Positions 2,182 to 59,255 of a stretch of 64,000 nt of DNA are shown here, piece after piece. This DNA is from Spirochaetia bacterium (GTDB lineage: Bacteria > Spirochaetota > Spirochaetia > WTKD01 > G963693115). The first letter of the stretch is position 1; each line of letters starts with the position of its first letter. A program made the position numbers and the translations under genes. The notes under the pieces are model-generated. The model did not search any database, was not told the DNA's origin, and saw only the letters and a program-made list of their open reading frames with translations. The stretch covers positions 374,951 through 438,950 of the forward strand of contig OY843750.1 in NCBI GenBank assembly GCA_963693115.1, in the 5' to 3' direction.

Positions 2182-3345
2182 TTATATAAGAAATTTTTCT
2201 ATTTCTACAGCAATGTTAGTACTTGCCATCCGTGCATTAAGACGTCCGAGTCGTTGCTTAATGTTTGAAGTATTATTCTGTAATAAATAATACACCATAG
2301 CAGAAAACTCTCCCTCTCTTGGCGAAGGCCCGAGATTAATTGCCACACCAATAGATGCAAAATACCGAGCGTTTTCTAGTTGATCACCACGTGATCCTTT
2401 ATGAGAAAGCGGGATTAACAAGGCGGGCTTTTTGTATGCTGCTATCTCCCATAATGTCCCCGCTCCCGCACGCGAAACCACAATAGTAGCAATACTGAGT
2501 AGTTGCGCGTATTCATCAAAAAAGAAGTCTCTTTGTATATGTTGAACCAATCCTTGACTGGAGTCAGTCATGCGCGAATGCAAGGGATGGGTAATACGAG
2601 CACCTGCTCCTCGTTGGTGAACTATCGTAATCGGAATCGTACACTTTTTATAAAACGTATCAACCAAACTATTTATATCGTGCGAACCTTGGCTTCCGCC
2701 TAGTACAAGCAACACGGGAGCATTACCGAACGAAGCAAGCATATCACTTTTTTTTGAGGCATTTGAAGCAGTAAGAATGCTAGGTCGTACTGGATATCCC
2801 GTTGTAATAACTGTAGGCTTTTTTGTTTTGCGTGCACCAACGAGCGCTTGGATACTCTGGTATGCAGAGTCATACGAAAGAAGAATGCTACGCGCATGCT
2901 TAACACTAAGGCGACTTGCAAGAGAAAGACTATGATCGCATACATGTACTACCACTGGTATTCTGAGTATACGTGCTGCCCATATTGGTGGCACTGACAC
3001 ATGGCTTCCCATGGCTACCAATATTTGAGGGCTACTCCGTTTTAACACAAAAAAAGCCTGAACAAACGATACAATTACTTTGATGGCTTGAACAAGAAGC
3101 CCGAAAGTAAGGTAACGATGAAATTTACCTGCAGTTATACTCAAAAAAGGTATACTGCTCCTACACACATAGTCTCTTTCAGGGCCCGTTTTTGATCCTA
3201 ACCACGCAATTGAATGATGACCACGAAGACGCAAGCTCTCAATTACTGCTATGCCCGGAAACACGTGACCACCACTCCCGCCACCAGTAACTATCACATC
3301 GTAGTGCTTTGATGCTTCGCCCTTCCTTTGTTTTGTCGTCTTGAT
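2182..3345 (-). CDS. murG: UDP-GlcNAc:lipid I N-acetylglucosaminyltransferase MurG
   Basis: TGGGSGGHVFPG, LVLGGSQGS, VVSRAGAG, GDQLENA motifs. Start placed tentatively at ATC 3345 behind SD AAGGAG; the ORF track extends to 3429. Confidence 0.93.
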   Translation of the reverse strand: MKTTKQRKGEASKHYDVIVTGGGSGGHVFPGIAVIESLRLRGHHSIAWLGSKTGPERDYVCRSSIPFLSITAGKFHRYLTFGLLVQAIKVIVSFVQAFFVLKRSSPQILVAMGSHVSVPPIWAARILRIPVVVHVCDHSLSLASRLSVKHARSILLSYDSAYQSIQALVGARKTKKPTVITTGYPVRPSILTASNASKKSDMLASFGNAPVLLVLGGSQGSHDINSLVDTFYKKCTIPITIVHQRGAGARITHPLHSRMTDSSQGLVQHIQRDFFFDEYAQLLSIATIVVSRAGAGTLWEIAAYKKPALLIPLSHKGSRGDQLENARYFASIGVAINLGPSPREGEFSAMVYYLLQNNTSNIKQRLGRLNARMASTNIAVEIEKFLI

Positions 3346-3400
3346 GTCCTTCTCCTTCGCTATAATTAAGTATATGCTAACTAAGCACGGGCCACACATC

Positions 3401-30643: not shown

Positions 30644-32073
<1,430 letters not shown>

Positions 32074-56844: not shown

Positions 56845-57678
56845 TCAGAATACCACCGTTCTATTTTTGTACACGATGACTCGTTCATCACATACGGCAT
56901 CTATTGCTTTGCTGAGAGTAACCGTCTCGATATTACGCCCTACTTCGCGCATCTGTTGCCATGAATGTCGTTGATCAACCCTCGTTACTTCTTGCGTGAT
57001 AATGGGGCCTTCGTCCAAGTCCTCTGTAACAAAATGGGCTGTCGCTCCAATTATCTTAACCCCTCTATCATAGGCTTGCTTGTAAGGATTTGCCCCTATG
57101 AAGGCTGGTAAAAATGAATGGTGTATATTGATTGCCTTCTCTTTGTATTTATTCACAAAAAAGGGAGTAAGAATACGCATATACCGGGCAAGTATAAGGT
57201 AATCAGGAGTGAATGCTTCAATTTTTTCTAACAAACGTTGCTCGTGTTTCTCACGCGCTTCTCCTTCTATCACAGGAATATAATAAAACGGAATACCAAA
57301 GCGATCAGTAAGGTCTTGTAGATCATTTCTGTTTGAAAACACCGCACACACTGTATAGTTGTGTGTATTGACATAGTTGTTGATGAGGAGTTCGCTTAGA
57401 CAATGATGATCCTTTGTAACCAAAAGCACCAATTTTTTTTTCTCCAAGGTCGACAGGGTAACACTTAATTCAGGATCGTCTATGGTCGAGCGTATATAGC
57501 GCTCAAGTTCGGCATTATCTTTGTCACCGGTGAATACAGCATGGACAAAAAAATGATTATAAAAACTATCAACATGCTGTTGAAGCGAATAAATATTATA
57601 TCCCGCTACAAATATTGCCTTTGATATGACACTATCTAATCCGGGCATATCTTTACACGATACTCGTAATACGTGCAT
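56845..57678 (-). CDS. purU: Formyltetrahydrofolate deformylase
   Basis: LVTKDHHCL, ILARYMRIL, INIHHSFLPAFIGANPY, GVKIIGATAH, LDEGPII. Confidence 0.97.
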   Translation of the reverse strand: MHVLRVSCKDMPGLDSVISKAIFVAGYNIYSLQQHVDSFYNHFFVHAVFTGDKDNAELERYIRSTIDDPELSVTLSTLEKKKLVLLVTKDHHCLSELLINNYVNTHNYTVCAVFSNRNDLQDLTDRFGIPFYYIPVIEGEAREKHEQRLLEKIEAFTPDYLILARYMRILTPFFVNKYKEKAINIHHSFLPAFIGANPYKQAYDRGVKIIGATAHFVTEDLDEGPIITQEVTRVDQRHSWQQMREVGRNIETVTLSKAIDAVCDERVIVYKNRTVVF

Positions 57679-58814
57679 CAGTCCTCCTTTGTTGCAAACA
57701 CTGAATACTGGTGATCAACTTGGTAGAGATAATCATATATTATATCTTCAAGTTGCTTAAACTCAATCAAAAACGCATCATGACCGTATATCGAAGTAAT
57801 TTCACGGTATTGAACATGGCGAATGTCTTTGAGGCACCCTTTTAATTCTTGTGGAGTGTACAGTAAATCAGAATCGATTCCAATAAGAAGAATGTCAGTG
57901 TTGATGGTTCTGAGGGCATGAGTGAGCGAGGCAAACCCTTTGCCAATATCATGTGAATCAAGCATATAGAGCAAATAGTAGTAATTGAGCGCCTTGAATC
58001 GTTGTACAAACTTTTTTCCTTGGTAATCTATATAAGAATGAATAGAACTGTTAATTGTTGCGTTTTTATTACGTATCTTAAATCCCCGCTCGTCCGCCCA
58101 TGCATGTGTATTAGTAATAAGCGACTCACGAGAATCTAATTTAGAGAAAATTAACGGAGATCTATAACTCAAAAAGGCAATTTCACGCGCAAGTTTAAGC
58201 CCCTGTTCTCCCGAGCCTTCTTTTTCTGCCTCAAAAAACGTTGCGTCATTCATGAGCGCCTCTCTTTGAGCATAATTTGAAGCTATCATCCACTGCGAGG
58301 TTTTTGGGTTTGCAGCTATGATTATGGCATGACGACAGGTGTCGGGGTAACTCACTAGCCACTGAAACACATGCTGTCCACCCATAGAACCACCTACCAT
58401 GAGGTGTATACTTGAGATTCGCAACTTTATCATCAGATGCCTGTATATATGTACTATATCTCGCGGGCTTAAAAAAGGAAAATTAAAAAAATACGGACGT
58501 TGTTCACCTCTCGTGCTATCCTTAAAGGCGTCATCGGGCATGGTATTATATGGCGAAAAAGAGCCATAGGGCGATCCCGGAACATTAACACTTATTAAAA
58601 ATTGTTTTTTTGGATTAAACACTTTGTTTGTTCCTATGAGTGGTCCCATCCAGTTTTGCGGGTTTGAATCCCCCGAAAAAGCGTGAAAAAACCACACTAC
58701 GTTAGTACGCTCTTTGTTTAATTTACCAAAACAATGGTAGACAAGTGGCACATGTGGTATATGCTCTCCTTTCTCCGTTACAAAATTTTTTATGCTGTCT
58801 TCAAAATACGCGAT
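57678..58814 (-). CDS. metX: Homoserine O-acetyltransferase
   Basis: HAFSGDS, GGSMGG nucleophile, DSDLLY, YGHDAFLIE. Homologous N-terminus extends 21 codons above GTG 58751 to an ATC preceded by AGGAGG. Confidence 0.93.
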   Translation of the reverse strand: MAYFEDSIKNFVTEKGEHIPHVPLVYHCFGKLNKERTNVVWFFHAFSGDSNPQNWMGPLIGTNKVFNPKKQFLISVNVPGSPYGSFSPYNTMPDDAFKDSTRGEQRPYFFNFPFLSPRDIVHIYRHLMIKLRISSIHLMVGGSMGGQHVFQWLVSYPDTCRHAIIIAANPKTSQWMIASNYAQREALMNDATFFEAEKEGSGEQGLKLAREIAFLSYRSPLIFSKLDSRESLITNTHAWADERGFKIRNKNATINSSIHSYIDYQGKKFVQRFKALNYYYLLYMLDSHDIGKGFASLTHALRTINTDILLIGIDSDLLYTPQELKGCLKDIRHVQYREITSIYGHDAFLIEFKQLEDIIYDYLYQVDHQYSVFATKED

Positions 58815-58835
58815 CGCTTCCTCCTCTCACGTGTT

Positions 58836-59255
58836 CTAAACCGATTGTGTACGTTGTTCCTTTGTACCACTAGAATGCTCATTAGCTTTTTTTATGGGAT
58901 TTTTCTGACTATGTTCTTGGGATTTTGCACCTCCGTTTGTATTAACAGAAGAATCTTTTTTTGCGCTTGCGTTTCCCTCCTTGTTTGTACCACCAGCATT
59001 GGCAGAGGCTTCTGCCCCAGCGGATGAACCTGAAGATGAATCAGCGGTCACATCAGAGGACGAAGATGATGGTGCCTTGTTGTCCGTCACAAAAAATCCT
59101 GAACCTTTAAACACAATACCAGCACCACGTGATATTAAACGTATAAGAGTATCCTTTTTACATTCTGGACAAACAGTAAAAGGATCTTGAGATATAGAAT
59201 GGAAAAACTCAAATGTTTTACTACAACGCTGGCACTCATAGTCATAAGTCGGCAT
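58836..59255 (-). CDS. FmdB family zinc-ribbon protein with Ser/Ala-rich tail
   Basis: MPTYDYECQRC...CPEC...GIVFKGSGFFVTD. Confidence 0.92.
   Translation of the reverse strand: MPTYDYECQRCSKTFEFFHSISQDPFTVCPECKKDTLIRLISRGAGIVFKGSGFFVTDNKAPSSSSSDVTADSSSGSSAGAEASANAGGTNKEGNASAKKDSSVNTNGGAKSQEHSQKNPIKKANEHSSGTKEQRTQSV

Follow-up and report, generated by a model that had tools for sequence, protein, structure and literature searches.

A putative AUC initiation codon of metX in a Spirochaetia bacterium and AUH starts in other genes of the same genome

The MetX-family gene of a Spirochaetia bacterium, which lies on the minus strand of the window (the whole 64,000-nt stretch of contig OY843750.1 analyzed here), is probably translated from the AUC codon at position 58814, with a Shine-Dalgarno (SD) sequence directing the ribosome and the initiator tRNA reading the codon, as judged from the sequence and a predicted structure. 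The original prediction had likewise placed the start at ATC and not at GTG 58751, and this placement is supported by the N-terminal hairpin that the GTG start would lose, by an SD spacing at the genome's mode, and by parallel AUH starts in the same genome and in a sister clade of metX. A weak start of metX is likely, but the analysis gives no support to a specific connection of methionine synthesis with initiation fidelity. The ATC is better regarded as one among several AUH starts of the lineage, not as a methionine/initiation-fidelity device, and a weak start at metX agrees with the general tendency of metX genes in this family to have weak starts. The start type is known but rare, and it led public gene callers to truncate the protein at its N-terminus.

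The metX start region and its Shine-Dalgarno sequence

Read from the letters of the window, the minus strand runs from TAG through AAC ACG, TGA, GAGGAGG, and AAGCG to ATC (Table 1), and the anatomy given in the original prediction was borne out letter by letter. The TGA and the ATC are 12 nt apart in the metX frame. ATG, GTG, and TTG are absent from this frame between TGA 58829-58827 and GTG 58751, and the only near-cognate codons between the TGA and the conserved strand are ATC 58814 and ATA 58793. The ATC is codon 1 and is followed by GCG TAT TTT GAA GAC AGC ATA AAA AAT TTT GTA ACG GAG AAA GGA GAG CAT ATA CCA CAT, and then by GTG 58751 as codon 22. The public call for the locus (P0001) is a protein of 323 amino acids starting from ATG 58649, which is without the N-terminal hairpin and the HAFSGD motif.

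Table 1. Features of the metX locus in the window and start codons of metX in related loci
Feature	Position	Strand	Basis or remark
Stop of upstream Zn-ribbon gene, TAG	58838-58836	-	Sequence
In-frame TGA, closes the metX frame upstream	58827..58829	-	Sequence, frame check
Shine-Dalgarno GAGGAGG, 5 nt before ATC	58820..58826	-	Sequence, genome SD statistics
Spacer AAGCG, SD to ATC	58819-58815	-	Sequence
ATC, proposed metX initiation codon	58812..58814	-	Anatomy, homology, model, SD statistics
20 codons AYFEDSIKNFVTEKGEHIPH, lost with the GTG 58751 start; strand 1 and beginning of strand 2 of the N-terminal hairpin	58752..58811	-	
GTG, first canonical start (rival)	58749..58751	-	SD-like AAGGAG 58771-58766 14 nt upstream, beyond usual spacing
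ATA (Ile8 of IKNF), rival near-cognate start without SD	58791..58793	-	Sequence, profile score
9-codon GTG...TTT TGA mini-frame, one base out of the metX frame (+1 slip or T-run indel rival)	58801..58830	-	
MetX-family homoserine O-acyltransferase CDS, re-called	57678..58814	-	378 codons + TGA 57680-57678
FmdB-type Zn-ribbon gene, conserved upstream neighbor of metX	58836..59255	-	TAG 21 nt before ATC
purU (formyltetrahydrofolate deformylase)	56845..57678	-	1-nt overlap with metX end, own AAGGAGG
GTG start of metX in relatives	L003, L004, L005, L029		
TTG start of metX in relatives	L022		
ATG start of metX in relatives	L023, L028, L024		L024 also AAGGAG-N6-ATC three codons upstream
AGGAG-T(G/A)ATT-ATT in genus g2	L006/L007:1456-1470, L021:2497-2509		ATT at 5 nt, candidate
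No canonical start (sister clade)	L026, L027, L030, L031		All four shortened by gene callers

SD usage was assessed with 505 ORFs having an unambiguous first start in the 1.8-Mb, 40% G+C genome. An SD core at a spacer of 3 to 11 nt precedes 27% of these 505 clean starts versus 5.8% of random positions, and SD spacing in the genome peaks at 5 to 7 nt, a range that includes the 5-nt spacer between GAGGAGG and the metX ATC. A 6-mer SD at a spacer of 4 to 8 nt was found at 7.7% of the clean starts versus 0.39% of random positions, which corresponds to a likelihood ratio of about 20. From ATA 58793, the GAGGAGG is 26 nt away. As a string, GAGGAGG is not rare, occurring 162 times on both strands of the genome, mostly within genes.

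No promoter-like site was found in the 21-nt gap between the Zn-ribbon gene and metX, which suggests that metX is carried on a polycistronic mRNA and is not leaderless. A search for Rfam matches, riboswitches, and other regulatory RNAs near the metX locus also found none. Two further candidate features were dropped: a hairpin around the SD and the ATC has a folding energy like that of shuffled sequences (z = -0.78), and the palindrome GCGATCGC, which spans the ATC, occurs 14 times versus about 11 expected.

In the proposed mechanism, a polycistronic mRNA would carry the Zn-ribbon gene, metX, purU, and further genes, and the strong SD GAGGAGG would position ribosomes 5 nt ahead of the AUC. The initiator tRNA would pair with the AUC with the third position mismatched, giving a product of 378 residues, (f)Met-AYFEDSIKNFVTEKG..., in which the full N-terminal beta-hairpin of the MetX fold is kept. 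We infer that actual initiation occurs at AUC 58814 with low efficiency, at a few per cent of that of AUG, and under discrimination by IF3. In Escherichia coli reporters, AUC supports 1 to 2% of the expression from AUG, and N-terminal Met was confirmed by mass spectrometry (10.1101/063800); in another context, AUC reached about 5% of AUG, and IF3 discriminates against codons of the AUH class (PMC5499595). It is plausible that the expression of metX is down-tuned by its weak start. Such a start is probably tolerated or mildly favored, as metX genes of the family are generally kept on weak starts, and drift may account for the fixation of the ATC itself, the lineage also having AUH at infC, mutL, and truA.

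The metX product and its N-terminal segment

The metX gene looks functional on the basis of its intact 378-codon frame, its catalytic triad, the presence of pathway partners, and its overlap with purU. Ser143 (in GGSMGG), Asp316, and His345 are invariant across an alignment of 21 family members, and the predicted model together with these invariant columns displays the alpha/beta-hydrolase MetX fold with a Ser-Asp-His triad. The product scores below the equivalog cut-offs of two curated models (TIGR01392, 287.3 bits versus 500; NF001209, 242.5 bits versus 331), and it is therefore named here as MetX-family, not as a proven MetX equivalog. The genome encodes a homoserine dehydrogenase, and MetY (O-acetylhomoserine sulfhydrylase) is encoded in the window at 30647-31945, with 651 bits on TIGR01326, which is over the cut-off. 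MetA (PF04204) was not found in this genome. With MetY and homoserine dehydrogenase present and MetA absent, the metX product is the sole candidate for homoserine activation.

The neighborhood of metX contains two further observations. The Zn-ribbon protein has a long Ser/Ala/Lys-rich tail, and its gene adjoins metX in nearly every family locus, with gaps of -7 to +64 nt. At the other end, the metX stop and the purU ATG overlap as TGATG behind AAGGAGG (window 57676-57689, minus strand), a classic translational-coupling layout, so purU output may depend on the weak metX start. A read-through fusion of the Zn-ribbon protein and MetX was ruled out by two in-frame stops between the genes in the window, and a fusion by a -1 slip on the A-runs of the sister loci was ruled out by an in-frame TGA after the A-run in L030.

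The original prediction held that the 21 codons from ATC resemble the MetX N-terminus, and this is confirmed by TIGR01392, by solved chains in the PDB, and by a profile built from relatives only. Residue 9 of the ATC-started protein matches position 3 of TIGR01392, and solved chains of MetX and of deacetylcephalosporin-C acetyltransferase (DAC-AT) align from residue 8. The relatives-only profile comprised 13 family loci, with the window sequence left out, and it gave the ATC form 451.4 bits and the GTG 58751 form 433.5 bits, a gain of about 18 bits. When the 63 nt were replaced by 300 stop-free nucleotide shuffles, the score was 435.4 ± 1.4 bits with a maximum of 441.8, which places the ATC form at a z of about 11. 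The motif IKNFVTEKG of the window corresponds to IKNFVTERG or IKDFVTEKG in relatives with about 45% overall identity.

The AlphaFold2 model of the metX product has a pLDDT of 88.7 and a pTM of 0.90, and it superimposes on the MetX and DAC-AT structures 2b61, 2vat, and 5w8o with TM scores of 0.80 to 0.83. Residues 2 to 12 and 18 to 29 of the model form a beta-hairpin with a pLDDT of at least 90. In this model, a start at GTG 58751 would delete the strand of residues 2 to 12 and part of the strand of residues 18 to 29. The segment ahead of GTG 58751 is judged to be coding from its profile score and its predicted fold. A profile score starting at ATA 58793 is 450.1 bits versus 451.4 bits for ATC; homology by itself cannot tell these two codons apart, and the ribosome-binding site can.

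Start codons of metX in relatives and of other genes in the genome

No closer relative of this metX, defined as having >48% identity, was found in genome contigs, JGI metagenome contigs, a 5.8-billion protein collection, or the whole order (9 genomes). Family synteny comprises hisF, the Zn-ribbon gene, metX, purU or a DtxR-like gene, and rsmI. No second strain and no genome of the same genus was among the collections searched for the ortholog comparison, in which the codon at the candidate metX start is ATC in two sister-clade loci (L027 and L031), a possible ATT in genus g2, and GTG, TTG, ATG, or GTC elsewhere. In genus g2, the GTG that abuts the SD in L021 reads GTA in L006 and L007. ATG is usable in only 3 of the 16 family loci (the window and 15 others) versus 83% of clean starts genome-wide, with a nominal binomial P of 5e-8 for loci that are not phylogenetically independent. 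An ATH codon occupies the Ile column of IKNF in every family locus.

The four loci of the sister clade align as GGAG-N5-RTC-TTA-R, in which the TAA or TAG terminates the Zn-ribbon gene. The RTC is ATC in L027 and L031, which have no canonical start ahead of the conserved strand and are, as judged from the alignment, independent replicates of the window architecture. L026 and L030 have GTC instead, and in the latter locus an in-frame TGA lies directly ahead of it. In these last two loci (L026:1423-1429 and L030:478-484, both Logan contigs), the GTC behind GGAG-N5 overlaps the Zn-ribbon stop, and neither a canonical nor a standard near-cognate codon lies within SD range. GUC initiation, initiation at a distant ATT or ATA, or a less strict choice of codon when translation is coupled to the overlapping stop is possible for these cases. 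With GTC at the equivalent codon, translation in these two sister contigs may begin elsewhere than at the SD-proximal codon, or the mechanism may differ.

Other genes of the genome were screened for open frames upstream of their first canonical starts, with follow-up by family models. A genome-wide screen for an SD with a near-cognate codon was uninformative in most cases, as most matches lay 1 to 2 codons ahead of a normal ATG. In truA (genome C1:189829, minus strand; L040), an ATA is located 6 nt behind TAGGAG, with an in-frame TAG three codons upstream. This ATA stands where relatives have ATG, and TIGR00071 aligns from residue 5 after it; a canonical codon is first reached at residue 63, past the catalytic GRTDAGVH. 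Because GRTDAGVH precedes the first canonical codon, truA must start at the ATA. The mutL gene (genome C1:47758, plus strand; L032) reads ATC GCA ATA ATT where genus g2 has ATG GCA. Since position 1 of TIGR00585 comes two residues after this ATC and no canonical codon follows until 62 codons further on, within the ATPase domain, mutL must start at the ATC. In infC (genome C1:1736719, plus strand; L025), an ATC falls at model position 1 behind AAGGAG and GAGG. The aligned start codon in five other family genomes is ATG for mutL and truA and TTG for infC (L046-L050).

Roughly 0.3% of the genes in this genome have the AUH-start pattern. As infC, mutL, and truA have ATC or ATA where the five relatives have TTG or ATG, the AUH habit appears to be lineage-wide and not methionine-specific, which fits a lineage-wide drift or a relaxed stringency. 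The original prediction had suggested a possible link of methionine synthesis to initiation fidelity; AUH starts at the unrelated genes infC, mutL, and truA argue against a methionine-specific rationale, as does the lack of a regulatory RNA at the locus, and this part of the prediction did not stand.

Alternative explanations, known systems, and implications

The 20 codons upstream of GTG 58751 could instead be an undecayed relic, with metX being a recent start-loss pseudogene or producing only a truncated protein from GTG 58751, ATA 58760, or ATG 58649. GTG 58751 is indeed the first canonical codon, and an AAGGAG precedes it by 14 nt and ATA 58760 by 5 nt; however, this AAGGAG is dictated by the conserved TEKGE coding, and its spacing to the GTG is poor. 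This small genome contains several broken genes, and mutL and truA, which are often lost in reduced genomes, are likewise without canonical starts, but three or four concurrent recent start losses would be less parsimonious than working AUH starts, each with its own SD. In addition, the 378-codon frame is whole and the triad is kept, the pathway partners are present with no MetA backup, and a GTG start deletes a structured hairpin, while a start at M56 also deletes the HAFSGD motif. A relic is therefore an unlikely explanation. Initiation at ATA 58793 (Ile8 of IKNF) instead of ATC is very unlikely. This codon is also near-cognate, scores almost as well in the profile, and belongs to the column with ATH in every family locus; that column, however, simply encodes a conserved Ile, and the canonical starts of relatives sit 4 to 16 codons upstream of it. 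Moreover, the ATA has no SD within 4 to 8 nt, the GAGGAGG being too far off, and residues 2 to 7, which it would exclude, are modeled in strand 1 with a pLDDT of about 90.

A start at GTG 58830 would be shifted by one base relative to metX and would read the 9 open codons of GTG AGA GGA GGA AGC GAT CGC GTA TTT TGA. The metX frame would then be entered at TTT TGA (58806-58801), through a +1 slip of tRNA-Phe or, alternatively, through a surplus T that the assembly has in the T4 run. The sequence U UUU UGA permits perfect +1 re-pairing beside a stop, as in prfB, whose +1 frameshift site (CUU UGA) likewise places a U-rich P-site codon before UGA and downstream of an SD-like element. The prfB shift is stimulated by an SD-like element roughly 3 nt from the slippery codon, whereas 13 nt separate the metX SD from TTT 58806, and the mini-frame is without an SD of its own or any other credible initiation signal. 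The T4 run is a short homopolymer, and the assembly looks clean, with 1275 ORFs of at least 150 codons covering 88% of the genome. Such a start would also turn the perfectly spaced SD and ATC into a coincidence, against the likelihood ratio given above, and it is highly improbable. An error of assembly or sequencing at base 58812, with ATG as the true codon, is just as improbable. Only a single assembly is available, but the per-base rate of substitution errors in a closed assembly of one contig lies far below the share of AUH-start genes in this genome, and sister-clade contigs from independent samples have ATC at the equivalent site. The AUH codons at several unrelated genes also make a sequencing error at metX very unlikely.

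The reading preferred here, SD-led initiation at AUC 58814, resembles the AUU or AUC starts of infC and the AUU start of pcnB in E. coli and other bacteria, in which a near-cognate AUH behind a normal SD is read by the initiator tRNA inefficiently and under discrimination by IF3 (PMC5499595; 10.1101/063800). The metX gene shares with these genes the AUH codon behind an SD, and infC of the same genome also appears to be ATC-started. Unlike infC, which is autoregulated, metX encodes an acyltransferase and not IF3, and there is no autoregulatory loop. The AUH start of infC is conserved in many phyla, whereas five relatives in this family have a TTG at infC, and the metX starts of the family vary among GTG, TTG, ATG, and AUY.

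Translational coupling by termination-reinitiation at overlapping gene pairs is another known system. Among the sister-clade loci, the candidate start RTC and the stop of the Zn-ribbon gene overlap by 7 nt (RTC-T-TAR) behind GGAG, and termination-reinitiation is plausible there. The window metX differs, as the Zn-ribbon TAG is 21 nt upstream of the ATC and does not overlap it. Coupling is almost abolished at a gap of about 20 nt in E. coli and Haloferax (PMC10666635). At the 21-nt gap of the window, de novo initiation led by the SD is thus more likely, and termination-reinitiation seems unlikely for this metX.

A shift in stringency across the lineage was also considered. In this scenario, a change of infC from TTG to ATC would have created an infC-type IF3 autoregulation, accompanied by the AUH starts of mutL, truA, and metX, and metX genes of the family would be deliberately held on weak or noncanonical starts behind the Zn-ribbon gene, including a possible GUC in two sister contigs. 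We consider this broader scenario rather doubtful. One genus and its relatives provide a small natural comparison of whether AUH starts are selected or fixed by drift. A metabolic enzyme together with mutL, truA, and infC of one genome adds to the few bacterial genes listed with AUH starts, and the shortened calls of the window gene and of the four sister-clade genes could mislead reconstructions of methionine synthesis in uncultured spirochaetes.

Three other loci of this genome carry features of the same kind. In murG (window 3340-3400, minus strand), AAGGAG-N6-ATC is found with the ATC at 3345; however, there are ATG codons upstream of it and a GTG at model position 8, which leaves an ATC start ambiguous. 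A gene for a membrane protein (genome C1:690776, minus strand) has 59 open codons that score as coding before its first canonical start, and a PhoH-like gene (genome C1:1424636, plus strand) has 28 such codons; a noncanonical start is possible in both.
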